Shown: positions 28,375 through 44,001 of the stretch, piece after piece
How the letters are laid out: each line of letters starts with the position of its first letter
Position numbering within the stretch: the first letter of the stretch is position 1
DNA from: Chloroflexota bacterium
GTDB taxonomy: Bacteria; Chloroflexota; Anaerolineae; Promineifilales; Promineifilaceae
DNA: 64,000 bases
Assembly: GCA_024277135.1 (NCBI GenBank)
Contig: JAJRVV010000103.1
Location: 1,207 to 65,206, forward strand
Direction of reading: 5' to 3'
Program-made: the position numbers and the translations under genes
The notes under the pieces: generated by a model
The model's database searches: none
Seen by the model: the letters and a program-made list of their open reading frames with translations, nothing else
Told to the model about the DNA's origin: nothing

Positions 28375-29385
28375 CTATTTGATGAGCGGTGTATTGGGGA
28401 TCGGGACTTTTATAAGAGAGGGTTTGGCGAACAGCGTCGAGTACTCTTCTTGAGCGGCAAGCAGGAGTGATTCATCAATGTCCCAGATGCGGATCATCTT
28501 TTCGTTGTGCCCTTGGGTCGCCAACACCGGCGCGGCGGGATGGAAGGCCAGGCTGGCAAAGGAAAAGCCGGAGTGGGGTTCGGTCAGGACGCCGGCCGGT
28601 TGCCAGGTATCAGTGTGCCATAAAATCACCTGGCCGTCGGCCGATTTGGAAGCTAGGAAACGGCCGTTGCCGGCGAAGGAGAGACTGGTGATCGCTTTGC
28701 TATGGGTAGATAAAACGTGGCAGCGGCTGCCCGAAGCCATCTCCCATAAATAAATGGAACCATCATCACCGGCTGAGGCTAAAATTTGCCCGTCGGGAGA
28801 GAGGGCTAACGTCAACACTTCATTCGTGTGGCCGGTGAGGGCGCGGTAATGTTGCATCTCCGGCAATGCCCAAAAGCGGACGGTGCGGTCGCCGGCGCCA
28901 GAAATGGCAAACTGCCCATCGGGGGTGATGATGATGCTGTTGACCCGCCCCCAATGGCCGCGAAAAGTGTGCAGTTCCCGATTAGTCTCCAAATTCCACA
29001 CTTTCACGCTTTGGTCATAGCCGCCGGAAACGGCCAGACGGCCGTCTGGCGAAATAGCCACTGCATACACATAATCTCTGTGTCCTACCAGGGTGACAGG
29101 CCGCCGGTTAGAAGTCAGGCTCCAATACTTGAGGTTGTTTTTGGAGGCGGACAGGGCAAAGCGGCCGTCGGGCGCGATGGTGACGGCGAAAACGGAGCTA
29201 TTGTGACCAGGGATGGTTCGCTTAATGTCGCCCGTTTCCGGGTTCCAGATGCGAATGGTCTGATCATAACTGGCGGTAGCTAAAGTACGGCCGTCCGGCG
29301 ACCAAGCCATCCGGGTAAACGGCCGGTTGCCCGCGCGCAACGTATGCCGCAGCTTAAATCCTGGGGGTATTTTTTTTCCGCGCAT
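28375..29385 (-). CDS. stand-alone WD40 beta-propeller protein
   Basis: Seven to eight repeats of GH..xV.AVaiSPDGr.a.Sgs.DxtvkvW type. Confidence 0.8.
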   Translation of the reverse strand: MRGKKIPPGFKLRHTLRAGNRPFTRMAWSPDGRTLATASYDQTIRIWNPETGDIKRTIPGHNSSVFAVTIAPDGRFALSASKNNLKYWSLTSNRRPVTLVGHRDYVYAVAISPDGRLAVSGGYDQSVKVWNLETNRELHTFRGHWGRVNSIIITPDGQFAISGAGDRTVRFWALPEMQHYRALTGHTNEVLTLALSPDGQILASAGDDGSIYLWEMASGSRCHVLSTHSKAITSLSFAGNGRFLASKSADGQVILWHTDTWQPAGVLTEPHSGFSFASLAFHPAAPVLATQGHNEKMIRIWDIDESLLLAAQEEYSTLFAKPSLIKVPIPNTPLIK

Positions 29386-29750
29386 AAATCATTAAACAAT
29401 TGTAACTGTACAGCGACCCCTTGGGGGCGACTGCCTGCGCGCCCAAAGAAACGTTGACATAAAGTTTGTTTCTTGGTAGGTCATTAACCTCTTCACCCTT
29501 GTTAGTTTACCGGGAAGGGAGTGGGTTTGTATGCGGTACTTTTGTCCGTCATTCCGGGATTAGGCTAGTACTTCGGTTTTGGTGGAGGGGTTAGGATATT
29601 GGTGACAAGTTAAGTAGGTTTAAGAATAGTCAAGTTCATCTTGCCCGCCCGCACCGCTTGAGAGTAGGGGCCGCCGGCGCTATATGATTCGTTTTTTCTT
29701 TGGGGGGATCCTTTCCATCGGTCAACTTGCGGCGCTTTAGGTTGAGGGGG

Positions 29751-30332
29751 TCAGATGATGGCAGCGTCTTTGATGGGGATATGTGGGTGGAGGGAAGGAT
29801 GGTGGCGGGGAGGACGGCCGTTTCCATTCCCATTATGCGCCGCCCCATTCGTGGGGCGGAGATAAGCTTGAGTTAACCGGGGCTGCGGCCGTGACGCGGC
29901 TTCCTTGTTAGCCATTATCTGGTGAAAACGATGCCAGAAAATCAGGAACCCGCCCAGGATTGCCGCATAGACAGCAAAACCAATGACTGCTTTACCCGCC
30001 CAATCTAAAAGGTTCAATTTAACCTGGTTCATCTGGCGATGATAAACGATGTCATCGTTGGTTTTGGCGATTTGGGCCTGGGCTGTCTCTTCTCGTTCTC
30101 GCCGATAATAAATGAGGTCAACCTCCTTTTTTTTGGCGTTATAAACGGTTTGCATCTCTATCTGCGCCGCTTGAGCCTGGCTTGTCCAAGGATTGGCCAG
30201 ATCGGACCCGGCTAACGCTAAACCGGCGAGCAACCCCAGAATAGCGGCGCAAAGCACAATAGTGGATACTCCCTTAAATGTATTCATAACCATCTTTGTC
30301 TTGTCGCCTTTTGTCGAATCAATTATCCGCAT
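29751..30332 (-). CDS. hypothetical two-TM protein
   Basis: 193-aa ORF with TM helices near residues 22-42 and 115-135 separated by a charged coiled region. No family recognised; start uncertain. Confidence 0.4.
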   Translation of the reverse strand: MRIIDSTKGDKTKMVMNTFKGVSTIVLCAAILGLLAGLALAGSDLANPWTSQAQAAQIEMQTVYNAKKKEVDLIYYRREREETAQAQIAKTNDDIVYHRQMNQVKLNLLDWAGKAVIGFAVYAAILGGFLIFWHRFHQIMANKEAASRPQPRLTQAYLRPTNGAAHNGNGNGRPPRHHPSLHPHIPIKDAAII

Positions 30333-30620
30333 TGGCGAAGTTGACCGGTAAACTTGCGCTGGTCAACTCCGCCAGAATAAGCGGCAATTGATTCGATAAA
30401 CAAATCTCCTTTTGATAACTCAATCGAATGCTTTCACCCGCTCAATTTTTGTGAAAGCGGCGAGTATCAGATAGTTGTATTGTATGGGCAGGAGGGAGGG
30501 ATTGCTGGACAGGAGACGGCCGTTTACAGAACAAGCGCCCCTCTATTTTTCAGACAACAAACGGACACGATGGTCAGCGGCGGGCTGTCTGTCACCATGC
30601 CGCATGAGTGTTGACGACGG

Positions 30621-33600
30621 TTATCGTGACAAAAAGCTTAAATCACAGCCTTGTTTTTCAGCGGCTGCTGTCAGGCTGTCGCGTATTTCACTTAGAGGAA
30701 TATGCAGTAAAGTTAGCAAAGAAAGCATCTTTTCATATCTGGATGCCACCAACGCCGTATCCGGCCAATACTTTTGAAAATGAACGATCGCAGCAGAAAA
30801 ATGGTTGGCGCATTCTCTGATAGCTTGATGTTTTTTGGCGTCCGTTAAATGCCCCTGTTTGATCTCAGATATATTCCACATTGCCTGCTGCCAGCCGATC
30901 TTGCCCAGAACAAACCAGTAGGCATCGCCCTGTTCCAACGGGCCGCGCGCCGCCAAATAATCTGAAACCAGCTTGTTTGCCATGTCCAATGAAGATGCTA
31001 CTGATTGGGGGTTGCCCTGACTAACCGCAATTTGGGCCAAATCATCATGGGTATCCGCCAACTGAAAGAGTAGATTATGTTCCTCGGCTATTTCTAACGC
31101 TTGATGGTAATATGCTTGCGCCTGGTCATATTTTTGTCCGGATAACTCTTGATCCACCGCTTGCGCGCAATCGCCCCAATCCCGATAGGCGCTTCCCATC
31201 TCATTGAACGCTTCCCACAATCGAATGGGTTCGTCTACTGTCTGGGAAAATATGGAGACCGATCTCTCAAGGGAGAGAATGGCGGATTGATAACTTGGCG
31301 CAACGGTTTCCAAAGCCATCCCGTCAGCAAACAATGAAGCCCCTTTCTGACGGCGACCCCACCCCAACGCATTGTACGCTAACCCGGTTCCTCTATCTGA
31401 ATTCATTTCGGCAAAGATGTTGAAAGCGGTCTGGCAGTCTCGAATCCCTGGCTCAATTTGCCCGCGAAGTATCTGAATGAGGCCCCTGGTATTGAGGCTG
31501 AGCGCGATGGGATAGCTCTGGCCTAATTCTTGGCGAAGGGTTAAGGCGCGGTTGACTTGGGCAAACGCTTCATCTACTAAACCGAGGCTGGCTTGCACGA
31601 ATGACATGTTGTTCAGGGTATTGGCTTGTTCGTCTTTGACTTCCGCGTTTTCATAATGAAAAAGCGCGTGTTCGTACTGCTCTAACGCTTTGCCGTAACG
31701 GCCGTTGCTGCGCAAGAGGTAACCTAAACGATCATAAGCGCGACCAAGACTCCGTTCCTGTATCCACGAGAGAGAAGATTCATTTTTAAATGGCAGTTGG
31801 TGCAATAATTTTGCCGCATTTTCCAGTATCGCCTGAGTAGAAAAATTAAGTTCGCCAACATAAACCAATGTTTCCCCATACAGGCTAAGAAACTGTCCCC
31901 AAAAGAATTCATCTTCCAGAGAAAACAAGGCGCGCGCTTGTTGTTCTTCATCAGCAGACAAATCTCGTGGTTCAGATACCCGGTTGCGCATCTTCTGATA
32001 TTGATCCGGACTGAATTCAACAATGGTCTCAGAGATTTCTAACGCATTTTGGTATTGAGCCTGAATTAGGTAACGTTTAACCCACCTTAAAGCGCTGTCT
32101 CGTTCTACATCTTCGAGGAATAATCCTACTTCTTCAAGGTAATCCTGATTGAACGCGGAACGGATAAAACGCAAGATTTCATTCCGCAGCTGCATATCAA
32201 GACCAATTTCCAAGCCGCGTATCGCTTCTTCATCCCAACGCATGTAATGTTTTTCAAAGGCTGATTTGGGGTTTAATCGCAGCTCGTAGTAAAACAACTT
32301 GGTAACAGTTTGTATCCAGATTGTCCGTTCCCCATTGGTCCGCGCTAAACAAGAGCGGTAATAATCAGCAATGCGTTCATACCAGGGCAGCAGTTGGCTG
32401 CGAGGCGGCGAGTATTGATCAAACAGCTCGTACAAAGCGTCATGCAAAAATAGTTCGTTATGGGAACGGCTCTTGACCACGCCCAGCCCGGATGCTTCTG
32501 ATAAATTGGCGCTGCACTCTTCTTTTGACCAGGCAGGTTCCAAGTAGTGCAAGAGTTCGGGGGTCAGCCCCTTGCGGGCCAGCGCTAGAAAAAAGAAGGT
32601 GCGGGAGGCTGGATCAGCATAGTTAAATAAACTGGCGACTATACTTTCGCCGATATTTGACGAATCTGTAATATCTTTCAGCATGCCAAATTGCTTGGCT
32701 TGCTTTAATATCTCGACGACGAGCGTGAGAATCACTGGATTTCCCTGAGTTTCCCGCCACAATTTATCAGATTTATCCAGATGGGTTACTAACTCCGGCG
32801 TGTCTGCCAGTAATGTTTGCAACAAATCACGGCTCTCTTTTCGCGTTAACGGCCGTACCATGATGCTCTCTACCAGACTGGCATTATCTTCTCTTAATTT
32901 GTCTAAATCTTGCTGCAAAACGGGATCAGGTCGTCCCGCCAACAAGATAACGCTGTTTTCAAAATGTTCAAGCTTTTGCAGCAGCCAATCACGAACCGCC
33001 ACTGACATGCTCTTAATTTGACAAATGGACTGGATTAACTCAGATTCAAAAGCTAATGTTTCTGCGGTATCCAAGGCGATTACCAGGCGATTTTGCTGCC
33101 GGGAAAATGCGCGCAAGTTTTCAATAAATAGTGTGTCCAATTCTTGTTGAACCGCTGGCGCGCTGCTTCGCCCTTGCAGACGCATTTCCTCAAACTGCGC
33201 TCGCGCCGAAATATACTCTTGGAAGAAACGATTATCCGGGTCTAATTTTTCTGCAATTGCGTCTTGAAATTCAAGGACGTCATGTAAATCGGCGTGGTAA
33301 AGATCGTATAACCCGCCCCAGTACGGCCGTTTCCTTGAAGAAGTTTTCTGGATAACCTTCTCGACTTCCTCAATCAACCTCGTTTTGCCGATGCCGCCCG
33401 GCCCATAAAAATACAAGATACGGGTTGTCCCTGCCTCATTGATAGCGCTGTCAATCGCTTCCATCTCTTTCTTGCGGTTAACAAAATCGGGGCGACGAAC
33501 GGATGCGTGGTGCCATGACCAGGAGGGTAAACGCAGGTTGGGTTTGTTTTTTAGACTCTCAGGCAGTTTCTTAAGGGACGTTTTGAGCAACTGCTCCAAA

Positions 33601-33635
33601 ATGATCTCAGCAATAACTGATAATAGAAAGTTCAT
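30621..33635 (-). CDS. STAND (NB-ARC-like) NTPase with long C-terminal TPR array, paralogue 1
   Basis: Walker A YFYGPGGIGKTRLIEEV; Walker B LVIALDTAE. More than 400 aa of TPR-like repeats. GGGAGA RBS. Shares blocks with 35582-38665 (LFYELRLNP, ALRWVKRYL, DEPIRLWEAFNEMGSAYRDW). Confidence 0.8.
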   Translation of the reverse strand: MNFLLSVIAEIILEQLLKTSLKKLPESLKNKPNLRLPSWSWHHASVRRPDFVNRKKEMEAIDSAINEAGTTRILYFYGPGGIGKTRLIEEVEKVIQKTSSRKRPYWGGLYDLYHADLHDVLEFQDAIAEKLDPDNRFFQEYISARAQFEEMRLQGRSSAPAVQQELDTLFIENLRAFSRQQNRLVIALDTAETLAFESELIQSICQIKSMSVAVRDWLLQKLEHFENSVILLAGRPDPVLQQDLDKLREDNASLVESIMVRPLTRKESRDLLQTLLADTPELVTHLDKSDKLWRETQGNPVILTLVVEILKQAKQFGMLKDITDSSNIGESIVASLFNYADPASRTFFFLALARKGLTPELLHYLEPAWSKEECSANLSEASGLGVVKSRSHNELFLHDALYELFDQYSPPRSQLLPWYERIADYYRSCLARTNGERTIWIQTVTKLFYYELRLNPKSAFEKHYMRWDEEAIRGLEIGLDMQLRNEILRFIRSAFNQDYLEEVGLFLEDVERDSALRWVKRYLIQAQYQNALEISETIVEFSPDQYQKMRNRVSEPRDLSADEEQQARALFSLEDEFFWGQFLSLYGETLVYVGELNFSTQAILENAAKLLHQLPFKNESSLSWIQERSLGRAYDRLGYLLRSNGRYGKALEQYEHALFHYENAEVKDEQANTLNNMSFVQASLGLVDEAFAQVNRALTLRQELGQSYPIALSLNTRGLIQILRGQIEPGIRDCQTAFNIFAEMNSDRGTGLAYNALGWGRRQKGASLFADGMALETVAPSYQSAILSLERSVSIFSQTVDEPIRLWEAFNEMGSAYRDWGDCAQAVDQELSGQKYDQAQAYYHQALEIAEEHNLLFQLADTHDDLAQIAVSQGNPQSVASSLDMANKLVSDYLAARGPLEQGDAYWFVLGKIGWQQAMWNISEIKQGHLTDAKKHQAIRECANHFSAAIVHFQKYWPDTALVASRYEKMLSLLTLLHIPLSEIRDSLTAAAEKQGCDLSFLSR

Positions 33636-33699
33636 GATCTCCCTCGCCGATACTTAACGGATTATGCTGTGTGGCGCACTCTCGTATCTTTTGTCAGTT

Positions 33700-35286
33700 T
33701 CAAATGATGGGCGTTAATTGGCCGTTTGCTTTTAACGCCTGCAATCCCTGCAAACGCAACAGTTCAGGAAGCAATGTTTTGTAAATGCGGCAGTGGGGGC
33801 TTTTGACATCCCAACGGCCGGCGGCCCGAACCGTTTCCAGCGGGCAGCCGCCAGTACACCGATAACGAAAGGCGCAATCACGGCATCCCTCTTTCTCATC
33901 CACCGCCAAATTGTGTATTTTTTGCCGGCGGCCGGGCGCTAACAAATCGTCCGGGAGCGGGGTGGAGGTTTGCAGGCGCATGTGACATTCCGCCAATTGG
34001 CCGGTGTGGGTGATGACGACGTAGTTCTGCCCCACGCCGCAGGTGTGGGTGTGCGCCGCCGCCTGCACTCGATCCAGCAGCCCGCCCAGAATGGGTTCAT
34101 CAGGTAATGCCTGCTTAATAACGGCGTAGGCCGCTTTTAGCCCGGTAATGATGGCTTCTTCTTCCAGCGCCAATTCTTGTCTTGAGGCAGACAGCAGGTT
34201 TTGCCGGTACAGGTTGAAGTTGACGGGAAGCTGCCGCTCTATGATGGCCCATCGGGCCAGGCCGGCGGCGCCGTGGGCATTGGCGCGGGTGATGGTCATG
34301 GTGATGTGGGGGCGAACGGCGTGGGGCAAGAGCAAGCGGTCAATTGTGTGGGCAACCCGGTCAAATGTGCCGCCGCCTCCTTTGCGCGGCCGCAGCCGGT
34401 CGTGCAGTTCGCCCACGCCGTCCAGCGACACCATGAGCCGAATGTTGTTTTCTTTGATCCAGGTTACATCATCGGGGCGCAGATTTACGCCGTTGGTTAA
34501 GATGACGGCCGTCAACCTGATTCCTGTCTCCTGCGCTTTTTGCCGCGCCAGCCGGTGCAGTTGGCGAATCATGTTAAAGTGCAGGGTGGCTTCGCCGCCG
34601 GCGTATTTTAGTTTGACTTGAGACAAGTTGTGACGGACGGCCGTGTTAAATACCGCCTCAATCGCCTTCTTCCCCGTTTCCTCACTCATCCGCGCCGATG
34701 ATTTACGCACGTAGCAGTAGGGGCACTCCAGGTTGCAGGCATTGGTCACGTGCAGCCAGACCGTCAGCGTCTGCGGTTGGGGCTGCCGCCATCTTATCTG
34801 CGTTCCGGCCGGCTGAATGAGGCGCTGCCGGGCGAATTCATGGTCAATGGCGGCCGTCAGCGGGCGCGGCTGGGCAAAAGCGCGCCACCGCTCCCAGGCG
34901 GCCCGGTTCAACAGCGCCGCCCCGCCCGGCGCAAAAGGACTTAAGGCTAGGTGAAAATCTGGCGAGAGTTTTAGCAAAAACGGGTTGGGCGTCTGGCGGT
35001 AGTGGGTGGAGTGGGGTGTGACGGCCGTCTGCGCCGACAATGGCGCAACGGCGCAGGCGCAATCATTTTCACCGCCAGCTTCTTCCGCAACCAGAGAGGC
35101 GGGGGCGCAGGCGCAATCATCTTCGCCCGCGCCCGCCGCATAAAACTGAACGGGGGCGTCCGGCGCAAAACAATCATCCTCCCCGGCCGAAGATACAAAA
35201 AAGCGAACCGGCGCATCTGGCGCATAACAATCATTTTCTCCGGCGGGCGGAGCTAAAATAAAGATGAGTGGGGTATTCGGGGACAT
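33700..35286 (-). CDS. radical SAM / SPASM-domain enzyme with N-terminal tandem Cys-repeat extension
   Basis: CNLECPYC (CX3CX2C). SPASM Cys cluster CGVGQNY...ECH...CRDCAFRYRCTGGCPLE...SPHCRIY. GAGGAG RBS. Residues 15-86 form four repeats of AG(E/G)(E/N/D)DC. Confidence 0.85.
   Translation of the reverse strand: MSPNTPLIFILAPPAGENDCYAPDAPVRFFVSSAGEDDCFAPDAPVQFYAAGAGEDDCACAPASLVAEEAGGENDCACAVAPLSAQTAVTPHSTHYRQTPNPFLLKLSPDFHLALSPFAPGGAALLNRAAWERWRAFAQPRPLTAAIDHEFARQRLIQPAGTQIRWRQPQPQTLTVWLHVTNACNLECPYCYVRKSSARMSEETGKKAIEAVFNTAVRHNLSQVKLKYAGGEATLHFNMIRQLHRLARQKAQETGIRLTAVILTNGVNLRPDDVTWIKENNIRLMVSLDGVGELHDRLRPRKGGGGTFDRVAHTIDRLLLPHAVRPHITMTITRANAHGAAGLARWAIIERQLPVNFNLYRQNLLSASRQELALEEEAIITGLKAAYAVIKQALPDEPILGGLLDRVQAAAHTHTCGVGQNYVVITHTGQLAECHMRLQTSTPLPDDLLAPGRRQKIHNLAVDEKEGCRDCAFRYRCTGGCPLETVRAAGRWDVKSPHCRIYKTLLPELLRLQGLQALKANGQLTPII
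35029..35244 (-). repeat. in-frame tandem coding repeats (4 units of 17-19 codons) at the 5' end of the radical SAM gene
   Basis: AGENDCYAPDAPVRFFVSS / AGEDDCFAPDAPVQFYAAG / AGEDDCACAPASLVAEE / AGGENDCACAVAPLSAQ. The DNA units ggcgcaggcgcaatcat... recur four times. Confidence 0.85.
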
Positions 35287-35492
35287 GCTAACTCCTCGCT
35301 AGAAGCCAGCAATATGACAGATCGCCGTTCAATTCCTCACAAACGAAATTTTTGTTGGTTATCTTGATAGGCTAAACTCTGGCACGCTGGCATGGTTTTG
35401 CTCCATTATTCACGATGAATTGACGCCTCCATATCTTAGCAGTCAAAATAACCCTTGTCCAGACCCTCTCAGATTTTTTGTATTTTGGCAGC

Positions 35493-35533
35493 AACAAAAA
35501 ACCACACTTTGACAAATTCCCGCCAAAGTGTGG
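35493..35533 (-). terminator. intrinsic terminator after the upstream STAND-TPR gene
   Basis: Minus strand CCACACTTTG gcgggaatttgt CAAAGTGTGG TTTTTTGTTGC, 49 nt after the stop at 35582. Confidence 0.75.
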
Positions 35534-35581
35534 CTAATTGCTCTTACACGCTGCGTTCAGGAGCGTTGTTTAATGAGGCTG

Positions 35582-38500
35582 CTAAAACATCACAGTTCTA
35601 TCAATCAAGTTACGTAATTCCGGCAGTTGAATATCGTACTTTGTTTCGATTGACTCCACCTGCGCTTTAGCCCATGTTGCCGGCTCTTGGGTTCGGGGTA
35701 AATAATCTCCGAGCTGCGGCAGATAGTTGGTTAAGTACCCCATCGTGCGGTCATAATCGAAAGATGTGGGCCAGTATTGGCGGAAATAGATGCTGGACAG
35801 GAAAAGGTTTGCCATGGCTTCTTTTAACCGGCTCTCCGTTTCCCCTTCCGCTGCTTGTTTATATTCCACATCCCGGAAGCGCCAAACGCCGCGCCACAGA
35901 TGCAATTTGCCCATCGCCACCCATTGGGCTTCGCCTTCACCGGTCTCCGAATCAAAGCCGCCAACCGCAAGTTTGAATTTAGCGTCAATGGAACCATCCA
36001 CCTCAATCAGATACCGCTCTGCCTGCTGCCGGTCGCGGCGCGCCGTTTCGATATCATCCATTTCAATGTTAAGGGTACTGCGGTCGCCATACGCTTGCGC
36101 CAAATCATCCAGAGAATCCCAAGTTTGAGATTCTAAATCATGCTCATCAGCTAATTTTCTGGCCTGTTCCTGGTAACTGATAGATTGGTCGTAATAGGCT
36201 AAAGCCTGGGAACGATCATTCAGCCGCGAACGCATCAGCCAGGCCCAGTCACAGTAGAGGCTGCCCAATTCATTGTTTGCCTCCCACAACCTGATAGGTT
36301 CGTCAAATGCAGAGAAAATATCTACGGCTTCATTAAGCGTCTTTGCCGCTTGCTGGAAAATCGAGTTTGCTTCTTTTGCGCTGATGCCGCCGAATTTCCA
36401 TTGGTTGGCCTGTTTGCGTAAGGAGTAGCCAAGCCCAATAAGGGCCATACCGATACCTCGGTCATCCCCAATCGCCTTTACAGTTTCCAGCGCTTCATGG
36501 CACTCCTTAACTCCCCAGTTTGGATGATTATCAAGGGTGTATATGATACCCAGGGTATTCAACGCCAATGCCAACGGGTAATCTCGTTTTGACTCTCGAT
36601 TGAGTTCGATTGCTCGTGAGATGAGACGAAACGCTTCCGTCGGGCGCGCATTAAGTCCCAGCAAGTAGGCGGTGTTTGTTAATGCAAAGGTTAACTCGCT
36701 CTTAACATCAGCCCGGCTGAAATGGGCAACCGCTTGTTGGTAATGGGACAAAGCCAGACCATACCTGCCTGTTGTGCGATAGAAATAGCCCAAACGATTG
36801 TGGGCCGCGCCTGAAATGCGATGGTAATGCCATTGTTGAGCTTTATCCAGGCTGCTTTGGTTTCCTTTTGCTTTCAAAATATTGATGGCATATTCGAGAA
36901 AGTCGGGGACATCTTTGAAAGCTAACTGTAATTTCTGGTTCAATACGGCCGCAGCTGATTTGATGTGCGCCGCTTCCTGAACGGCCGCCTCCACCAACGC
37001 CACCAGCAAATCCGCCTTGTAAAAATCGTCGTCAATTTTATTCCAATCGAATAATGGATCTTCACTGGCAATTAAATCCAGGGCGACTTCGCGGGCCGTT
37101 TGTGAATCGCCCCGGGCCCAATGACGGCGCACCCAGCGCACGGCGCAATCCCGATCAACGCTGTCTCTATCTAATCGGTTGGCGATCAGTGCGTCATAAA
37201 ACTTAGATTGAGGATCCACATACCGGTTCAAAAAGCCCAACACTTCGTTACGCAGGCGCATGTCATAACTATGCTCATGCACTTGAATCGCATCATGATC
37301 CTGCCAGGCATAATGAAAGTGATACCCCTGGTATGGGTTGACGCGCAACTCATAAAAAAGGCTGTCAACGGCTAATTTTTCTGGTGACGGGCCAGATTTG
37401 TCTTGTAATTTTTGGCGGTAGTATTCGACAAATGGTTGGTACTCTATGGATTCAGACGCGGCCCCCCTAAAGTATTGATCATACATGTTATAAAGTTCAT
37501 CGTGGAAGAAGAAAGTTTTGTGGGAATTCTGGGAGTCGCCTGCCTGCCGCACCTTGACAATGGCTAATTTCTCCAACCAGTTTAATAGGGAATCAATATC
37601 TTTCTCTTCTTCTCCTAGGTATGTCAGCAGTTCAGCATCTAACCCTTTGCGCGCTCTGAATAAGTTTTGGATGATACGGCCGTGCGGGTCTGGCAATCTC
37701 CGTAAATCATCAATCAATTGTTCGGCCAACTTGTCTTCCGGGAATTCACGACCAGCCAAAATATCATTGACAAATTGTTTGCTGCCTTCCGATTGAGTCA
37801 AGAAAAGGTCAACGATCAACGCCAGGTAAACGGGACGGCCGGCAGCCACCCGGTGACAGTGCGCGTCCAAATTTTCATACTCGCCCAGAATTTCGTCCAG
37901 GCTGGCGTCACCCTGTTCTTTTAGTTTTTTGGATATCTCATTCAGATATTCGCTAGTTTCCTCCGGGGAAAACGCCTTCAATTCTTCTGCGTCGAATGTG
38001 TTGTCTTTTGCGTGGAACCGTTTAGTAAAGGTTGTTTCAATCCGTTCTCGATTCTGCGGCCGGCCGGCCATCAAAATGACTGTATTCGGCAAAGCCGGCA
38101 GCTGCTCCACCAGCCAGTTCATCACCAACGCATCTACTGTTTCTACCTGACAGATTTTTTGCACTGGATCACTTTCATGCTGCATCAATTCCATCGTGTC
38201 CAGGCGAATCACCAGCCGATGCTTTTGCGCCAGTGTCCGGTAGTCGTTTAGGAATGCTGTCTCCGTCTCGTCTTGCAGCCGCTGCAATTCTCCGCTGGAA
38301 GCGCCGGCCGTCTGCTTTTCTATCAACTCTTTCCGTTTGGCGTAATATTCCCGGAAATCATTCGACTCTTCCTCCTCCAATCCGGCGACAATGCCATGAC
38401 GGATGCCGTCGCTGCTTTGATAATCGGAGTGGTACATATCCAGAATGTCAGTACAGCGGAAAGAAAGCCCTCTCCATTTGCCTTCTTCAGTCGCCACATC

Positions 38501-38665
38501 TTCCAGCAAACGGGTTTTGCCAATGCCGCCAGGGCCATGAAAATAGAGCAGCCAGGTGCGGCCTTCATCTTTGAGGGCATTATAAATTGCTGCTAATGGT
38601 TTCTTGCGGCCAATGATTTTTTCAGTGCGTCGAGAGGGCGTTTGGTCGTGAGCAGAGGGGGACAT
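35582..38665 (-). CDS. STAND (NB-ARC-like) NTPase with long C-terminal TPR array, paralogue 2
   Basis: Walker A YFHGPGGIGKTRLLEDV; Walker B LVIRLDTME; TPR-like C-terminal half; AAGGAG RBS. Confidence 0.8.
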   Translation of the reverse strand: MSPSAHDQTPSRRTEKIIGRKKPLAAIYNALKDEGRTWLLYFHGPGGIGKTRLLEDVATEEGKWRGLSFRCTDILDMYHSDYQSSDGIRHGIVAGLEEEESNDFREYYAKRKELIEKQTAGASSGELQRLQDETETAFLNDYRTLAQKHRLVIRLDTMELMQHESDPVQKICQVETVDALVMNWLVEQLPALPNTVILMAGRPQNRERIETTFTKRFHAKDNTFDAEELKAFSPEETSEYLNEISKKLKEQGDASLDEILGEYENLDAHCHRVAAGRPVYLALIVDLFLTQSEGSKQFVNDILAGREFPEDKLAEQLIDDLRRLPDPHGRIIQNLFRARKGLDAELLTYLGEEEKDIDSLLNWLEKLAIVKVRQAGDSQNSHKTFFFHDELYNMYDQYFRGAASESIEYQPFVEYYRQKLQDKSGPSPEKLAVDSLFYELRVNPYQGYHFHYAWQDHDAIQVHEHSYDMRLRNEVLGFLNRYVDPQSKFYDALIANRLDRDSVDRDCAVRWVRRHWARGDSQTAREVALDLIASEDPLFDWNKIDDDFYKADLLVALVEAAVQEAAHIKSAAAVLNQKLQLAFKDVPDFLEYAINILKAKGNQSSLDKAQQWHYHRISGAAHNRLGYFYRTTGRYGLALSHYQQAVAHFSRADVKSELTFALTNTAYLLGLNARPTEAFRLISRAIELNRESKRDYPLALALNTLGIIYTLDNHPNWGVKECHEALETVKAIGDDRGIGMALIGLGYSLRKQANQWKFGGISAKEANSIFQQAAKTLNEAVDIFSAFDEPIRLWEANNELGSLYCDWAWLMRSRLNDRSQALAYYDQSISYQEQARKLADEHDLESQTWDSLDDLAQAYGDRSTLNIEMDDIETARRDRQQAERYLIEVDGSIDAKFKLAVGGFDSETGEGEAQWVAMGKLHLWRGVWRFRDVEYKQAAEGETESRLKEAMANLFLSSIYFRQYWPTSFDYDRTMGYLTNYLPQLGDYLPRTQEPATWAKAQVESIETKYDIQLPELRNLIDRTVMF

Positions 38666-38732
38666 GAGGCTCTCCTTATCATCTGTTTTTATGCGCGGGC
38701 AAGAGATATGCCGGCCGATCGAACGTGACTTG

Positions 38733-40187
38733 TTAATGGGGAACGGGTATTTCTCTGCCCTCGGCCAGGGCGCTGGCTAATTGATTTGCCAATATAGCAA
38801 AAAGTGGTTCCGGAAGCAACTCTCTCAATTCTTCATCTGATTCAAATTGATTGTACAGGGTGTTGGCTCTATCAAAGCTGAGGTTTTCTAAGGCAAAGGT
38901 GAGGCTCTGTTTCAGTTGGTCTTCTAATTTTTCCGCATCCCCCTCTAAACTGTAGATACTGGCTTGATGGAGCCACGTTTCCAGGATGAAATCTTCGCTG
39001 GCTTCAGGGTACTCGTTAATCCAGCTTTCATACATCTCTATCGCTTGCCGGTGCTGCTGGATGAAACGGCCGGGGTCGGCCAACATTTGTTGTTGGTTGA
39101 GCAGGGAGCGGACGATGCGGCTGGTGGTGTAGGCGCGGCGTTCCCGGTTCCACCAGACGTATTCGGTGTTTTGTTCCAGAGCGCGGATGAGTTTGAGGTA
39201 GTAGTTGTACGGCCGTTCCTCCTCCCCTTGCAATTGGAGCGTGTGCCGAACCCCTTCCAGCCGATAGTAACGCAAAACTGAAACCGCTTTTAACACCTTA
39301 ATCAACCGGTCAGGCACGTCCTCAAACAAATAATCAACCGCTGCTTGATAAACAGGAGGTAAAATCTCTGACTGATGCTGTTTCCAGATTGCGGCCGTGA
39401 GCGGAACTTCCCCAAGCCGCCGCTCGCTTTCTACCAGCAGCTCTTTGGCAATGAGCGGGCTGGTGGCTGACCATTTATAAATATCATCAACATCTATGGA
39501 GCGGCCGGATAGCCGGTTGATTTGCTCCTGAATATTCTCTTTCGTAAAACCATTGAGACGGCTTAATTCCAGAGGCGCTACCCGTCGTCTCGTCTCAAAG
39601 CGAACCCATTCGGGGATCGGCCGTCGCCCGGCGATGACGAAAACAATGCGGTTGGTCATTGCCAATGGTTCGATGAATGATTTTTCCAGATTTGCCCAAT
39701 CATCAAATGCCGATTCTGCTTGATCCAGGAGGATAACCGGCGCAAAACGATGGGAAAGAGTTTTTAAGAGTTCGACCAAAGCTGCGATCGTCTTGTTTTT
39801 ATCAGCCTGTTTATAGGCAGACTGTTCATGAGGCAAGAATTTTTTTTGTAATCGTTCTTCAATTTGCTCCAGACAAGCAGAAATGAACGCTTTATAATCA
39901 ATCTGTCCACTCTTCTCTTTGGGAAATCGGTGAAAAAGGGAAAACGTTGGGGCCGGAGCCAGTTTGTCTGGGAGGGAACCGTCATATTGATACAACTGCC
40001 TTAAGTGAGAGATGAACCACGATTTGCCAATGCCGCGCACCACCCAAATGTTAACAATTGGCGACTCCGCGATGCCCCCTGACTGGATTTGTTTTACCAT
40101 GCCCGATATCCAGCGCAGGCGTTTCTCTCGATTGACAAATAAACTTAGACGATACGGTTCTTCTGCCTCAAACATACTGGCCATCAT
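38733..40187 (-). CDS. short STAND-type P-loop NTPase
   Basis: FVNREKRL...IWVVRGIGKSWFISHL (P-loop), VILLDQAE (Walker B), VFVIAGRRP, helical C-terminus. Start set to the ATG at 40187, 14 nt after the upstream stop; the track start at 40235 would overlap that gene. Confidence 0.7.
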   Translation of the reverse strand: MMASMFEAEEPYRLSLFVNREKRLRWISGMVKQIQSGGIAESPIVNIWVVRGIGKSWFISHLRQLYQYDGSLPDKLAPAPTFSLFHRFPKEKSGQIDYKAFISACLEQIEERLQKKFLPHEQSAYKQADKNKTIAALVELLKTLSHRFAPVILLDQAESAFDDWANLEKSFIEPLAMTNRIVFVIAGRRPIPEWVRFETRRRVAPLELSRLNGFTKENIQEQINRLSGRSIDVDDIYKWSATSPLIAKELLVESERRLGEVPLTAAIWKQHQSEILPPVYQAAVDYLFEDVPDRLIKVLKAVSVLRYYRLEGVRHTLQLQGEEERPYNYYLKLIRALEQNTEYVWWNRERRAYTTSRIVRSLLNQQQMLADPGRFIQQHRQAIEMYESWINEYPEASEDFILETWLHQASIYSLEGDAEKLEDQLKQSLTFALENLSFDRANTLYNQFESDEELRELLPEPLFAILANQLASALAEGREIPVPH

Positions 40188-40201
40188 GATACCCTTTGTG
40201 A

Positions 40202-41329
40202 TTATTGATGAACACTTTGGTGGAATTTCTCCCAATCTTCTGGGGAGATACGGCCGTTACGAAACGCTGATTGACTGACCAATTGACTGGTTAATTGCAA
40301 GAGTGTGCGAGGTGGCCCCAAATATGGGTGGCTAAGAGCCATCTTGGTAAGCTCTTTTTCAACTTTCACACGCGCTGATAATTCTTGAGAACATAAATCT
40401 TCTACTCGCTGATAAAGCGATGGTTGATCAAACTGCTTGCTGGCCCATTTGAGCCGCGAGTTTAAAAATTGAACAAGGCTTTCATGATCCCATTCTATGG
40501 GCACAGGATGTAAACGGCCGGTTCTGCATCCACTTGATTCCAACACAGTCGGTTCTAACAATTTTGGAAGAAAAAACTTCCAGACAACGCCTGGAATGGA
40601 TAACAAAGACAATCCATTTAGCAGTGGATTCACTAATGCTGTCATACTGGTGAAATCTACAAACTCGTTTAAGCCATCCACGCCATCTATCAATATAAAT
40701 AGGCGGGAGATTCCTAATGGATGAATATGTTCTCTTATGTTATTGAGGGCGCGAGCAAGGGGAGTATTACTTTGAATTGGAGACCCAATGTAATCCGTTT
40801 CAAGATAGTTCAATTCACTTCTAAGATCATCATCGAGTTCAAATTGCAGATCATATCCTAAATAAGCCTTAATAAAAGCCCAACACCACCTGCGATCAGC
40901 CAGGGGCATATCTTTATCTTCCAAAAACCGTTCTTTGTTATGCGGTTGCTTGATATAGCAAAGCAGCGCTTTGGCAACACAAGCCATCAAAGGCTTAAAA
41001 TGATCGGATGTTTTAATATTCGGTAATTTCTGTATGATTAACTCAAAACTATCGTATGTGACAACTAACCAATCTGGACGCAACTTCAGCTTTTGAGCAA
41101 AGCGCAGCCGGTGGGCTGTTTTACCCCCACCCCGTTCAGCCAACAACACGGCCGATTTCTCTAAATTTTGAATTTGGTCAAACCCGGGATGTTCCACAAA
41201 AAGCCTTTCCCACAACCCTGCATCATCAGGCATTTTTTCAGCTTCTGCGTAACCAAATGGGTCATAAATAAACCCCAACCCTTGTAAATGTGGCGGCGGG
41301 TTGGGTAATTTAACGCTGCGTTTGGTCAC
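40202..41329 (-). CDS. P-loop NTPase, paralogue of the N-terminal 370 aa of 41547-43118
   Basis: LQGLGFIYDPFGYAEAE...LLAERGGGKTAHRLRF (Walker A), LFILIDGVDGLNE (Walker B). GTG start. Confidence 0.7.
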   Translation of the reverse strand: MTKRSVKLPNPPPHLQGLGFIYDPFGYAEAEKMPDDAGLWERLFVEHPGFDQIQNLEKSAVLLAERGGGKTAHRLRFAQKLKLRPDWLVVTYDSFELIIQKLPNIKTSDHFKPLMACVAKALLCYIKQPHNKERFLEDKDMPLADRRWCWAFIKAYLGYDLQFELDDDLRSELNYLETDYIGSPIQSNTPLARALNNIREHIHPLGISRLFILIDGVDGLNEFVDFTSMTALVNPLLNGLSLLSIPGVVWKFFLPKLLEPTVLESSGCRTGRLHPVPIEWDHESLVQFLNSRLKWASKQFDQPSLYQRVEDLCSQELSARVKVEKELTKMALSHPYLGPPRTLLQLTSQLVSQSAFRNGRISPEDWEKFHQSVHQ

Positions 41330-41467
41330 TGCTGAGAACCTTGTTTGTTACCTATGATCTGGAAAATCACACACGATTGGTTACGTCTCCAGTGTTGGCG
41401 TTTGCAATTGTAACGGACTATACATAAATGTAACCGCATCACCATACGCCATTGTAAACATTAGTGA

Positions 41468-41508
41468 TGGACAATTGCTGGACAAATCTCTCCCAATTGT
41501 TGGACAAT
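41468..41508 (-). promoter_or_regulatory. three direct repeats TGGACAA(T/A) phased 11 and 22 bp apart (candidate wHTH operator)
   Basis: Copies at 41468, 41479 and 41501 (plus strand; TTGTCCA on the gene strand), in the 217-nt gap upstream of 40202-41329. TGTCCATCAC also occurs at 43241-43250. Confidence 0.4.
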
Positions 41509-41546
41509 TTGCAGACAGATATTGCCCTATTTCTGACTCCTTACAA

Positions 41547-43118
41547 TCATGCAGCGTAGTTTTTTAGAATAAATCCCGAACCCCGATGGGTCTCAATGTA
41601 GTTTTGTAACTGGCCGCTATCGCCGACTTTTTTGCGGAGGCGGCCGATATTGCGATCTATCGTCTCCTCGCTGACGCCATCCTTGCTTCCCCACACTTTT
41701 TCAGCTAATTCGTCCCGCTCACAAAACCCATCATTTTCTATCAATGCCTTCACTATCTTCCATTGGATAGGCGTCAATTTGATTGGTTTGTCTCCCAACC
41801 AGATTAGATGCTTGTTTATTTGCACGCGGAGTATTGGGATACCTTCAGGTGCAATCGCTTCTGCTGCGTCCGGTTCTGGTTGAGCAGGTATGACGGCCGT
41901 CCTCCTCACATCCCCCAATTCTCCCTCTACCGCCTTCCAATCCGCCATCGTCAAAAAGCCGGATGTCCCGGCGCGCCGTACATGCGCTTCACACAACTGC
42001 TGCATCGTTAACAAAAGCTGACGCGGGGATACGGCCGTACAAACCCCCGCCTCAATCTCCTCCGCCACCCCCTTACTCCGACAAATCTGCCCCAAATCCG
42101 TTACATCCTGCCGGCTAAAAACCCCCATCCGTTCATTCAGCAGCCGTACCAGACGCCCTCTATCCCAACTCAACTGAGCCATCTTTATCCGAACCCTATC
42201 CAGCCGCAGCCAATCCCGCGCTTCCAACACATCCCGCACCATATCAGGCAAGAAAAACTTGAACGCCACCCCTCGTTTCTCCAACAAAGGCAAATGCCCC
42301 AAAATCGGGTGCAGCAATTCCGCCTGTAGCTGCGGATCATTCATCGTTTCCGGGATCTCATCCACCCGATCAACTAAAAAGAAAACCGACCGGAGACCTG
42401 CATCCCGGCACAAACCAACAAACAGTTCAAGTTGCCGCGCCGGTCTTAAAGGAACCGCATCCGGCAGACCAAAATCATTCAACTCCGCCAACAACCTGGC
42501 CTGGGTCTGCTCCGTCACCTGAAGAACAAGGGGGGCCAAAGATTTACTTCCTGCCCGCTGCCTAAACTCCGCCCAACTCACACCCATGGCAGCTAAAGAA
42601 ATATCCGGCGACATCCCACTCAAGCGGGTTAACAAAGCGTCAGGCGACCACAAAAGCGGCGCGCGCGCGTGTAAAAATTGCGCCAGGTTGATTTTTACCG
42701 GTTCCGGCATACTTACCCCTGGCTTTGCCAGGAGATATGAAAGCAGTGTGTTTGCGCCAATTTCAAGCAAAGCCTGAATTGCCGACTCGCTGTTAAGCGT
42801 TCCCTGCCGATGATGTGCCAACAAGCCGTCAAAATCAGTGAATTCCACAGACAAAACAGGTTGGGACATCTCTTTAGGCGCTGTTTTGTCCGCCAGCATC
42901 ATCCGCAAAGCCGTCTTACCCCCGCCGCGCGGCGCAAAAATGATAATACCCCCCTCTCCCCTTATTTCGTCAATCTCCGGCACATCCACAAAGAAGCGAG
43001 GCAGCAGTTCCCGCTCTTGCTCCGCCTCCACACTGGCAAAAGGATTGCCCATATGAAACCCCAGGCCCTCAAGCCATTCATCAACCTTCTTGTTCAAATC
43101 AGGGGATTGGTTCGTCAT
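41547..43118 (-). CDS. P-loop NTPase fused to a C-terminal OmpR/PhoB-type winged-helix DNA-binding domain
   Basis: LEGLGFHMGNPFASVEAE...IFAPRGGGKTALRMM (Walker A), VFFLVDRVDEIPE (Walker B). C-terminal LTPIQWKIVKALIENDGFCERDELAEKVWG...IDRNIGRLRKKV...IETHRGSGFIL. GGGAGA RBS. Confidence 0.75.
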   Translation of the reverse strand: MTNQSPDLNKKVDEWLEGLGFHMGNPFASVEAEQERELLPRFFVDVPEIDEIRGEGGIIIFAPRGGGKTALRMMLADKTAPKEMSQPVLSVEFTDFDGLLAHHRQGTLNSESAIQALLEIGANTLLSYLLAKPGVSMPEPVKINLAQFLHARAPLLWSPDALLTRLSGMSPDISLAAMGVSWAEFRQRAGSKSLAPLVLQVTEQTQARLLAELNDFGLPDAVPLRPARQLELFVGLCRDAGLRSVFFLVDRVDEIPETMNDPQLQAELLHPILGHLPLLEKRGVAFKFFLPDMVRDVLEARDWLRLDRVRIKMAQLSWDRGRLVRLLNERMGVFSRQDVTDLGQICRSKGVAEEIEAGVCTAVSPRQLLLTMQQLCEAHVRRAGTSGFLTMADWKAVEGELGDVRRTAVIPAQPEPDAAEAIAPEGIPILRVQINKHLIWLGDKPIKLTPIQWKIVKALIENDGFCERDELAEKVWGSKDGVSEETIDRNIGRLRKKVGDSGQLQNYIETHRGSGFILKNYAA

Positions 43119-43364
43119 GTTTCTCCCTACATGAGACCGCGCTTTTCATACATTGTAAAGGGCATCAGAGGCCCTGGCAAGAGTGCCATCACGCTATTCT
43201 GTCCATCTTGGCTGTCAGCTTTTTGTCCGCGTCCGATTTCTGTCCATCACTTGTTAACAAACCGAGGGGCGGTTGTCCAGCGCGTCAACGCTGTCTGATC
43301 TACTGTATAACCAGGCCGGCCAAACAATCGAACGTTAAAAAACAACTTTACGGAGGTACAAAAA

Positions 43365-43559
43365 ATGACAATTTTACCAACCATCTACACCGTACTGGCT
43401 ATTCTTTCCTTGGCAGCTTTCTTCATTGCCCGCAGTTTAATCGGAATCGCTATGGCAAACGGACATCACGACCATCACTCCTGCCAACTGGCATGGGTCT
43501 TCTGCTCGCCACTGTTAGCCGTCAGCCTGATTTTCTTCATCGCTTCAATACCGCCATAA
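43365..43559 (+). CDS. small two-TM membrane protein with His-rich loop
   Basis: 64 aa with GGAGG 8 nt upstream of the ATG. TM1-NGHHDHHSC-TM2. Divergent from the island. Confidence 0.5.
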   Translation: MTILPTIYTVLAILSLAAFFIARSLIGIAMANGHHDHHSCQLAWVFCSPLLAVSLIFFIASIPP

Positions 43560-43720
43560 CCGGCGACCTACACTTTACAAAGGAGGTGAACCGCCCACTT
43601 AACCAACTGTATCACTCACCCCAACTTAAAAAACAATGCACCAACCATACCGGATAAGAATCCATAGGAGGCGCGCCTATCATCGAATTTACCTAAACGT
43701 CAAAAATCAAAAACTGAATA

Positions 43721-43760
43721 AACCAGCCGCACAATTTTTGTGCGGCTGGTTCGTTTTTGG
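43721..43760 (+). terminator. intrinsic terminator
   Basis: AACCAGCCGCACA atttt TGTGCGGCTGGTT CGTTTTTGG. Confidence 0.7.
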
Positions 43761-43817
43761 TTGATTTGATCTGCCCGTCGTGCCATCGGCGCTAGATGAG
43801 ATGCGCCTAACGGCCGT

Positions 43818-43846
43818 TTGACACCCCCGCCGCCATATGTCATAAT
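43818..43846 (+). promoter_or_regulatory. sigma70-type promoter upstream of hom
   Basis: TTGACA (43818-23), 17-nt spacer, CATAAT (43841-46). Confidence 0.55.
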
Positions 43847-43888
43847 GCCCCCATCTTCTCATTCATCGGACAGCCATCTTAATGATGA

Positions 43889-44001
43889 GGAGGTGGCGCT
43901 TATGAGTTGTTACTCTTGTAAACGTACCGTAGCGCCGCCTCCCAATAAGAGTTGAGCGCTACGGTACAAAATGCAAAGGCCCTGTGCAAAACAGGGCCTT
44001 T
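43889..44001 (+). promoter_or_regulatory. structured hom leader with a 17-codon uORF and mutually exclusive hairpins
   Basis: uORF 43902-43955 (MSCYSCKRTVAPPPNKS) behind GAGGAGG. Pairings: GGAGGTGGCGC (43889-99) with GCGCCGCCTCC (43932-42); GTACCGTAGCGC (43924-35) with GCGCTACGGTAC (43956-67); AAAGGCCCTG (43975-84) with CAGGGCCTTT (43992-44001). Confidence 0.45.

Follow-up and report, generated by a model that had tools for sequence, protein, structure and literature searches.

Introduction

NTP-dependent conflict systems of bacteria have been defined by their effector-associated domains (EADs), Trypco1, Band-7 and polymorphic effectors (Kaur et al. 2020, PMC7159879). Among the peptide-processing systems of the same survey (section 24), an actinobacterial FxSxx peptide and a radical S-adenosylmethionine (rSAM) enzyme with a SPASM domain always occur with an AP-ATPase that carries tetratricopeptide repeats (TPRs). 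DS-41 ('AAA2'), a single-gene system, protects E. coli from phage experimentally (DefensePredictor, PMC13092281). Here we analyze a locus that brings a SPASM-type rSAM enzyme together with STAND-TPR proteins and DS-41-like ATPases. It lies on a 64,000-nucleotide stretch of a Promineifilaceae genome (Chloroflexota; GenBank assembly GCA_024277135.1, contig JAJRVV010000103.1, positions 1,207 to 65,206), hereafter the window. Its six minus-strand genes are, in the order of transcription, g1, g2, g3, g4, R (the rSAM enzyme) and g6, and a seventh gene, M7, follows them (Table 1).

A first-pass annotation of the window had proposed the island as an undescribed NTPase-rSAM conflict or signaling system, and the comparison of related loci reported here supports that proposal. 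The invariant core of the system is a pair of genes, one encoding a STAND NTPase with a C-terminal TPR array (S) and the other R. R carries a fused N-terminal tail of acidic Cys motifs, and the ATPases linked to the pair bear polymorphic modules. The open-access literature yielded no description of the S-R/ATPase combination; the motif DDCAC/DCACPD and Sll1717 appeared in no paper, and a SPASM-STAND defense system was found only in Kaur et al. 2020 (PMC7159879). In a 2026 survey of STAND proteins (PMC13581612), the word 'radical' is absent from the main text.

Results

S and R recur as a conserved gene pair

Relatives of R were sought in one genome per GTDB species. One is encoded on each of 412 stretches, which corresponds to up to 412 species genomes, and none was found in viral contigs. 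We retrieved 79 R loci out of the 412 stretches (L001-L079; further relatives are numbered L080 and L083-L085) and compared their neighborhoods by gene calling and protein clustering. Synteny counts rest on the 65 informative loci, those with at least 3.5 kb available upstream of R. In 60 of them an S gene of at least 700 codons is found no more than three genes away from R; in 48 it is the immediate upstream neighbor of R on the same strand. The S-R pair is preceded by one to four additional P-loop ATPase genes in 56. The co-occurrence of the rSAM gene with NTPase genes elsewhere, which the first-pass annotation had suggested as a check, is therefore real. Because the cluster recurs in dozens of genomes, its genes are not chance neighbors, and their grouping is far beyond chance. 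In 42 of the 55 loci in which start/stop coupling was counted, a start codon of R is placed between -10 and +20 nt relative to the S stop, a spacing that indicates translational coupling of the two genes.

The hosts of the 79 loci comprise 66 Chloroflexota (Anaerolineae, Ardenticatenaceae, Promineifilaceae, Caldilineaceae, Chloroflexus and Roseiflexus), nine cyanobacteria, two Thiotrichaceae/Beggiatoa-like bacteria, one Blastocatellia and one Actinomycetota. Most of these groups, including the Chloroflexota filaments, Leptolyngbya, Nostoc, Adonisia and the Beggiatoa-like Thiotrichaceae, we take to be filamentous or multicellular.

The canonical operon lies on one strand and consists of three ATPase genes (~700, ~440 and ~420 aa), a fourth ATPase or short STAND gene (~400 aa), S (~1150 aa) and R (~495 aa). 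A cyanobacterial variant runs S, ATPase-trypsin fusion, Trypco1, R. The window's closest relatives, with R at 71% identity, have the same gene set. One of them, the L080 operon from a different metagenome, matches g1, g2, g3, g4, R and M7 at 53-71% protein identity. The individual values are 59% for g1 including its winged helix, 56-58% for g2 (here with an EAD7 insert that is absent from the window), 70% for g3 (over 38736-40184), 71% for g4 and 53% for M7 (alignment from 30293); L080 also has an EAD7-only gene.

Several further features of related loci are worth recording. The first gene of the canonical operon (~700-770 aa) has an N-terminal region of ~420 aa without a Pfam match. The second (~440 aa; L002-L060) belongs to a distinct ATPase subfamily, marked by an N-terminal RWPF.P....PE....WW.EC before Walker A, which stands at this position throughout the canonical operons and is absent from the window. 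A Blastocatellia contig (L038:721-14167) carries two complete sets of S, ATPase-trypsin and R in tandem, and R occurs at two separate places in the Chloroflexi genome SZPK01 (L065, L072). The gene just downstream of R varies: in L001, the closest relative, its product is 2537 aa long and combines a beta-propeller with an AAA_16 domain (L001:2485-10098), and in L021 it is an alpha-2-macroglobulin-like giant (L021:12041-18295).

S is a STAND-TPR protein without an effector domain

The two S proteins of the window, g4 and g6, had been annotated as paralogs, and they align over their full length with 30% identity (E 7e-117). In Pfam, both match AAA_16/NACHT/NB-ARC-type domains and TPR_12; the hits include AAA_16 and NACHT in g4, and ATPase_2 and AAA_16 in g6. 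Walker A residues G46, G47, G49 and K50 and the Walker B residue D156 are invariant in an alignment of 60 family members. Walker A begins at residue ~44 in g4 and ~80 in g6, and a Pfam scan of 40 S proteins detected NTPase and TPR domains only, with no effector domain in any of the 40; TPR_MalT was matched by six. The earlier statement that neither window protein has an N-terminal effector domain thus stands.

The profile of the S family matches peptide-binding TPR proteins in the PDB, namely LGN/Pins, kinesin light chain, AfsR and Rap, over its TPR part only; single-sequence searches of the PDB with g3 and g4 returned no hits. S evolves fast, with a mean column identity of 22-23% versus 55% in the R family. 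The closest relatives of g6 (576-623 bits) are the S genes that immediately precede R in L066, L068 and L073, and in L083/84/85 a g6-like second S begins 70 nt past R.

R combines a peptide-maturase-type body with a fused Cys-motif tail

R consists of the tail, a domain at residues ~95-160 that resembles a RiPP recognition element (RRE; RiPP, ribosomally made peptide with post-translational modifications), the rSAM core and a seven-Cys SPASM domain at residues 416-499. It matches Pfam Radical_SAM. The rSAM motif CX3CX2C is formed by C184/C188/C191, and in the family alignment seven SPASM cysteines (C416, C434, C468, C471, C477, C481 and C499) are invariant. No curated NCBIfam maturase model reaches its cut-off on R, so R does not fall cleanly in a characterized family, which the first-pass annotation had named as a ground for refuting its proposal. 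The best scores are 137 bits for rSAM_nif11 (cut-off 519), 130.8 for PapB NF047865 (340), 112.7 for SCIFF TIGR03974 (425) and 56 for FxsB TIGR04269 (370). The closest solved sequence is CteB (5wgg; E 4.7e-23, phmmer against the PDB), and an AlphaFold2 model of R (mean predicted local distance difference test (pLDDT) 79.7, predicted template modeling score 0.83) gave CteB 5why, anSME, TigE and ChlB as top Foldseek matches. CteB, PapB and anSME, the nearest characterized enzymes, act on Cys peptides. In CteB, the seven-Cys SPASM domain leaves an auxiliary-cluster site open for a substrate Cys, and PapB joins Cys to Asp in C-X3-D motifs.

The R start codon (ATG at 35286) has a strong Shine-Dalgarno sequence, GAGGAG, in front of it, so the tail belongs to the R protein. 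The four repeats in the window read ENDCYAPD, EDDCFAPD, EDDCACAP and ENDCACAV, the first two with a single Cys each. Across 189 full-length family members with 317 CxC sites in total, the N-terminal region holds one or more CxC sites in 181 (96%). Two sites are present in 129 of the 189, copy number ranges from one to four, and the modal spacing is 22 aa. Asp precedes the first Cys in 306 of the 317 sites. The logo reads E-x-[DE]-[DNE]-D-C-A-C-P-D-x-A-F-x-L; 74% of sites have D or E at +4, and cyanobacterial, Thiotrichaceae and Blastocatellia members carry DCDCAC variants.

In the AlphaFold2 model of the window R, the first ten residues are predicted confidently (pLDDT 86) and include a strand at 8-10, and pLDDT falls to ~30 over residues 18-81, the part with the Cys repeats. 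The canonical two-repeat homolog P0022 likewise has a strand at 8-10 (pLDDT 87) and DCAC motifs below 50. Since a strand assigned by DSSP requires a partner, the N-terminus of R is predicted to pair with the enzyme body, like a leader peptide with its RRE, although the partner strand itself is inferred. A four-Cys zinc-ribbon or knuckle fold of the tail was considered and is unsupported by both models.

The first-pass annotation had seen no stand-alone precursor gene. This holds for the family, as no separate small precursor ORF is conserved across the 79 loci, but a precursor-like peptide does exist, fused to the N-terminus of R. Apparent natural splits of the two proved to be errors: in L029 an in-frame TGA replaces a conserved Trp codon (TGG), and in L003 and L012 the gene is broken across frames, both of which appear, from their contig names, to be long-read (nanopore) assemblies. 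Small tail-only ORFs (MD.MVLLVG..R..EDDCAC.H...) with a GGAGG ribosome-binding site lie between two S genes at L066:6485-6877, L068:6564-6806 and L073:6497-6895. They could be either precursor-like free peptides or relics of a lost second R.

Accessory ATPases carry interchangeable modules

g1 scores 155.4 bits on NCBIfam DS41_1 (E 2e-45, model positions 4-358 of 448; cut-off 370) and 58.7 bits on ATPase_Sll1717 (cut-off 75); g2, at 110.2 bits (E 1e-31) and 55.7 bits, likewise stays below both cut-offs, 370 and 75, the second of which both proteins miss narrowly. By these profile scores g1 and g2 are ATPases of the Sll1717 group and remote DS-41 homologs, in that homology is clear and equivalog membership is not. 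The two proteins share 27% identity (E 8e-20), which confirms g2 as the g1 paralog without a winged helix. The winged helix of g1 (Pfam Trans_reg_C, 63 bits, residues 444-518) is the only recognizable output domain in the window, and its fusion to the ATPase is retained in the L080, L083 and L084 orthologs. g3 has a weak AAA_16 match (E 0.0016) and an alternative TTG start at 40235. Its family, s3, stands directly upstream of S in 10 loci, and the equivalent position elsewhere is taken by ATPases with EAD7 (L005, L006, L011) or TIR_2 (L033).

Modules were scanned on 35 accessory proteins from related loci. TIR_2 occurs N-terminally in L025 and C-terminally in L033. Trypsin_2 is found in L040 and in the cyanobacterial F4, the latter with an adjoining Trypco1 gene. 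L069 carries a Schlafen/AlbA_2 (SLFN_AlbA_2) module and L026 EAD7 with PNP_UDP_1, while SEFIR and CHAT appear once each among the 35. EAD7 is present on ATPases of L005, L006, L011, L030, L080 and L083; it was not detected in the window, though L080 and L083 are its nearest relatives. Trans_reg_C is carried by ATPases in L026 and by g1. Separate from the ATPases, a PLD-like (PLDc_2) gene at L024:10436-12499 overlaps the R stop. The earlier remark that classical effectors are lacking is thus right for the window and wrong for the family, in which ATPases of related loci bear TIR, trypsin, CHAT, PNP, Schlafen and SEFIR domains. PADLOC 2023 models run against all seven window proteins gave nothing significant, only weak TPR, DolB and PDC-S27 hits with E > 1e-4 except for TPR (3e-6).

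Organization of the island in the window

All six ORFs of the island (30621-43118, minus strand) were confirmed from the sequence together with their motifs, as was the intrinsic terminator annotated after g4. As first drawn, however, the island was incomplete, since M7, the R tail and the R promoter, upstream ORF (uORF) and leader had been overlooked (Table 1).

Table 1. Positions of genes and regulatory features of the island, numbered along the window
Feature	Position	Strand	Description
g1	41547..43118	-	Sll1717/DS-41-like P-loop ATPase with C-terminal OmpR/PhoB-type winged helix
g2	40202..41329	-	g1 paralog without winged helix
g3	38733..40187	-	Short STAND-type (AAA_16) ATPase
g4 (S1)	35582..38665	-	Effector-less STAND NTPase with TPR array
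R	33700..35286	-	Radical SAM/SPASM peptide-maturase-type enzyme with fused N-terminal tail
R tail, aa 1-85	35032..35286	-	Leader-like hydrophobic strand (PLIFIL), then four acidic Asp-Cys repeats
g6 (S2)	30621..33635	-	Second effector-less STAND-TPR paralog
M7	29751..30332 (start probably 30293)	-	Two-transmembrane (two-TM) membrane protein with coiled-coil linker
g1 promoter-like site	43152..43180	-	TTGCCA-17-TACAAT, 10/12 consensus positions, top hit of the consensus scan
Intrinsic terminator after g4	35500..35535	-	16-bp stem and T-run
R promoter-like site	35433..35461	-	TGGACA-17-TAAGAT, upstream TG; consensus scan
uORF in R leader	35337..35393	-	18 codons, MPACQSLAYQDNQQKFRL

In the sub-lineage of the window, the S-R spacer measures ~285-350 nt and holds the terminator, a promoter, the uORF and a predicted hairpin. 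L001, L080 and L083 retain the terminator hairpin, whose stem shows a single A:T to G:C change that is compensatory. The -10 and most of the -35 element of the R promoter are conserved in five related loci, and both hexamers of the g1 promoter, identified by consensus match, in L080, L083 and L084. The conserved g1 promoter and the spacer with its terminator and R promoter therefore predict two transcription units in the window, g1-g2-g3-g4 and R-g6-M7.

The R leader is conserved at the nucleotide level (window 35287-35440, L001:752-905, L080:8484-8636, L083:8894-9045). The uORF, of 18-19 codons (MP..Q...HL*), stays in frame in L001, L080 and L083/85 across a 3-nt indel. In the predicted leader structure the uORF region pairs with sequence downstream of it, and a hairpin of CUGGCUUC with GAGGAG would sequester the R Shine-Dalgarno site; covariation across the four sequences is weak. 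The arrangement suggests that the leader may place R under translational control, with the uORF possibly regulatory. Rfam models gave no match at gathering thresholds between 28 and 45 kb of the window (the sole hit in the R leader was a chance microRNA, E ~1), hence no SAM riboswitch in the leader.

Upstream of the g1 promoter, GGACA occurs four times at 43197-43278 (minus strand), two of the copies within an exact 11-nt direct repeat, GATGGACAGAA, 40 nt apart, and the -35 element of the R promoter (TGGACA) also contains GGACA. As candidate operators of the g1 winged helix, the GGACA/GATGGACAGAA repeats were rejected, being absent upstream of the g1 orthologs in L080 and L083/84.

M7 (family 8) is the next gene after R in six other loci; in a seventh, L004, it lies a short way downstream. 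It has no Pfam, NCBIfam or PADLOC match, and by its recurrence is probably an accessory gene. In some loci a Band_7/SPFH gene stands downstream of R at the M7 position. A WD40 beta-propeller gene (336 aa, 28375-29385, minus strand) follows M7 directly and has a homolog (cluster f43) near R in L021; its occurrence is too sparse for membership in the system.

G+C content is 0.496 in the island versus 0.573 in its flanks, and within the island it forms a mosaic. R is at 0.60 (0.68 at third codon positions, host-like), the five NTPase genes at 0.43-0.53, and third positions of g2 at 0.39. This composition could reflect either a separate history of the NTPase genes or evolutionary constraints different from those on R. 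The flanking genes are housekeeping (homoserine dehydrogenase, MurJ, RsgA, a Lon-like protease), which leaves the NTPases no adjacent cluster to regulate, another ground for refutation that the first-pass annotation had named. There are no tRNA genes in the window, and thus no tRNA integration site.

Between the island and the homoserine dehydrogenase gene, a 64-aa ORF (43365-43559, plus strand) codes for a His-rich peptide with two TM segments (MTILPTIYTVLAILSLAAFFIARSLIGIAMANGHHDHHSCQLAWVF...) and has a GGAGG-type ribosome-binding site, and a strong bidirectional terminator with a 14-15-bp stem lies beyond it (43720-43752). A 519-aa protein with four DUF7282 repeats and a lipoprotein-like N-terminal signal (45153-46712, minus strand) is unrelated to the island.

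Discussion

A proposed function for the S-R pair

The reading that we favor is that of a widespread, previously unnamed NTPase-centered conflict system, in immunity or cell fate, in which R of the S-R core modifies its own tail and S reads that tail; taken as a whole, we hold this to be evenly balanced. Its parts differ in strength. It is probable that this is a conserved system of the NTPase conflict type, with S-R as its core. Self-modification of R that is read by S is a more tentative proposal, which we put below an even chance. The most specific form, in which R cross-links Cys in its own tail and the tail serves as a ligand or hub for the STAND TPRs, which in turn recruit DS-41-like ATPases with TIR, protease, PNP or DNA-binding outputs, is possible and on balance rather unlikely.

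The interchangeable effector modules and the homology of g1 and g2 to DS-41 strengthen the conflict-system part. We count in the same direction that S never carries an effector, that S evolves fast while R is conserved and that the island is poor in G+C. Self-modification of the tail is suggested by the retained RRE-like domain, the lack of a conserved separate precursor and the predicted leader-like docking of the first tail strand. Further points are the likeness of the flexible multi-copy motif to a multi-core substrate, the Cys-peptide substrates of the nearest enzymes, and a SPASM domain with seven rather than eight Cys. The tail-only ORFs of three loci were counted for the tail as a built-in substrate as well.

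In mechanistic terms, the Cys motifs of the tail would be modified by R itself, through its RRE-like domain and SPASM clusters. The reaction would run either in cis or from one R molecule to another, and its most likely product would be a Cys-derived thioether or another cross-link. The TPR array of S would read the tail, modified or unmodified, which would make S-R a sensor or switch. NTP-dependent assembly of S with the accessory ATPases would then fire whichever output those carry. As the g1 winged helix is the only recognizable output of the window, a transcriptional response is suggested there, possibly with M7 as a second output.

Several observations pull the other way. With its substrate fused, R could turn over only once, an unusual property for an enzyme. 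In the window no classical toxic effector was found, PADLOC returned nothing, and the DS-41 and Sll1717 scores of g1 and g2 lie below the curated cut-offs. In the sub-lineage of the window, S and R are split by a terminator and a promoter and are not coupled. An acidic residue at +4 would fit PapB-type Cys-X3-Asp chemistry, yet only 74% of sites have one and the cyanobacterial DCDCAC variants lack it. Finally, the 22-aa modal spacing of two CxC pairs could fit a metal site too.

Alternative explanations

The tail could also restrain R instead of being its product. In that case R would be the effector, autoinhibited by the tail as a tethered pseudo-substrate until activated S pulls the tail off through its TPRs, and it would damage a host or phage target by radical chemistry. 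Such a role would suit an S that is translationally coupled to R and bears no effector itself, a first tail strand that docks confidently on the enzyme body in two models, and loci that, like the window, have no other obvious toxic domain. However, R is invariant while TIR, PNP, trypsin and other modules vary in the same operons, which fits a core sensing or signaling part better, and it retains an RRE-like peptide-recognition domain typical of peptide maturases. We therefore regard R as effector as improbable. The same RRE-like domain, next to a SPASM maturase body and a multi-core-like tail, is what a RiPP-type natural-product or cell-cell signaling pathway would show, in which R matures a peptide that is released and the STAND protein and ATPases are regulators with the g1 winged helix as output. 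Trypsin-like domains in some loci could free the peptide, the g1-type winged-helix fusion is conserved in the sub-lineage of the window, and the hosts are mostly filamentous bacteria. TPR-based peptide sensing is moreover the logic of RRNPP quorum sensing, and Rap is among the PDB matches of the S profile. Against such a pathway, the 79 loci show no exporter or dedicated leader protease that is conserved alongside R, the TIR, PNP, CHAT, Schlafen, PLD and EAD7 modules at equivalent positions are death or immunity modules and not pathway regulators, and the accessory ATPases are homologous to DS-41. It has a small but appreciable probability in our estimate.

The tail may alternatively have no substrate role. 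CxC motifs elsewhere serve as ligands of Cu or of Fe-S clusters, and most family members have exactly two CxC pairs, hence four Cys, at 22-aa modal spacing with acidic flanks. The Asp-Cys-x-Cys motifs would then form a metal, Fe-S or redox-sensing site, and the system would be a stress-responsive regulatory module. Yet the CxC copy number varies from one to four, the first two repeats of the window have single Cys, and AlphaFold2 predicts no compact knuckle but flexible, low-confidence motifs in both models. The retention of a full RRE-rSAM-SPASM maturase body would also be left unexplained, and we judge this account distinctly improbable. Nothing except the separate R promoter of the window favors chance juxtaposition, or NTPases that are ordinary regulators of an adjacent known cluster. 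Both are refuted by an architecture that recurs in dozens of genomes from several phyla, by the housekeeping flanks and by the orthologous L080 operon from a different metagenome.

Significance

STAND/NLR-like immune receptors are usually held to sense invader proteins directly and to bear their own effector. Here, an effector-less STAND-TPR protein is tied to a peptide-modifying rSAM enzyme that carries a candidate substrate, and effectors reside on accessory ATPases. If the reading of a self-modified tail that S recognizes is true, it would give a testable reason for the recurrent pairing of rSAM/SPASM enzymes with NB-ARC/TPR proteins, the roles of FxsT and HaaT included. An rSAM-made peptide mark would then join the repertoire of immune signaling, as a new signaling principle for NLR-like proteins. 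R would also be the first natural fusion of an rSAM maturase and its substrate, which would make it of use to RiPP enzymologists. With up to 412 species genomes the family is large, and since its hosts are mostly filamentous, it bears on the relation of multicellularity to programmed cell-fate and immunity systems.

Comparison with known systems

The NTPase conflict systems of Kaur et al. (PMC7159879) resemble the present one in their regulatory NTPase core, which numbers five proteins in the window and mostly takes the form A-A-A-(A/s3)-S-R, with A an ATPase. They are also alike in having interchangeable effectors at equivalent positions across loci, of which the window itself has only Trans_reg_C. 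With most of its hosts in filamentous or multicellular groups, the present system may also follow the host pattern reported there. DS-41 aligns with g1 and g2 over ~355 of the 448 DS41_1 positions; it is a single gene, whereas the operons described here have six to seven.

S resembles Avs/AVAST proteins in joining a STAND NTPase to a C-terminal TPR-type sensor, and the loci of its family share the repertoire of TIR, trypsin, PNP and Schlafen modules. It differs in having no fused effector (40 proteins) and no PADLOC Avs match, in that effectors sit on separate ATPases, and in its obligate rSAM partner. With MalT/AfsR regulators S shares an NTPase joined to TPRs; unlike them it has no DNA-binding domain, the winged helix being on g1.

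On the enzyme side, R resembles the SCIFF/ranthipeptide maturases CteB and PapB in its RRE, CX3CX2C rSAM core and seven-Cys SPASM domain, and CteB is its top structural match. Their substrates are Cys-rich acidic peptides, like the R tail, although R scores far below their cut-offs. CteB and PapB act on a separately encoded precursor, whereas the candidate substrate of R is fused to it and its context is one of NTPases, not a RiPP cluster. A fused substrate has a precedent in the borosin OphMA, a peptide-modifying methyltransferase of a natural-product pathway that carries its own core peptide at its C-terminus. R shares with OphMA the fusion of enzyme and substrate and differs in its N-terminal tail, its radical SAM chemistry and its NTPase system.

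The Fxs/Haa triceptide systems (FxsB/HaaB with FxsT/HaaT), which belong to NTPase conflict systems enriched in multicellular bacteria, likewise link a SPASM rSAM enzyme obligately to a STAND/AP-ATPase with C-terminal TPRs. The earlier remark that the locus does not match FxsB/FxsT is borne out at each component. R reaches 56 of 370 bits on the FxsB model. S has no FxsT hit at E <= 0.01, and its HaaT scores of 23.5 and 37.6 bits (cut-off 1125) come from the TPR part only. A search for an FxSxx-COOH precursor found no valid ORF of 20-120 aa in 29001-44000, the only regular-expression hit being spurious. The window system further lacks a zincin peptidase or vWA-MoxR core and has Sll1717/DS-41-like ATPases as partners; its peptide is Cys-based and fused to the N-terminus of the enzyme, and its hosts are Chloroflexota and cyanobacteria, not actinobacteria. 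Set beside Fxs/Haa, the logic of a STAND-TPR protein, an rSAM-SPASM enzyme and a peptide is known, and what differs is the enzyme clade, the fused Cys peptide, the partner ATPases and the host range. There is a fair chance that the mechanism is new in kind.

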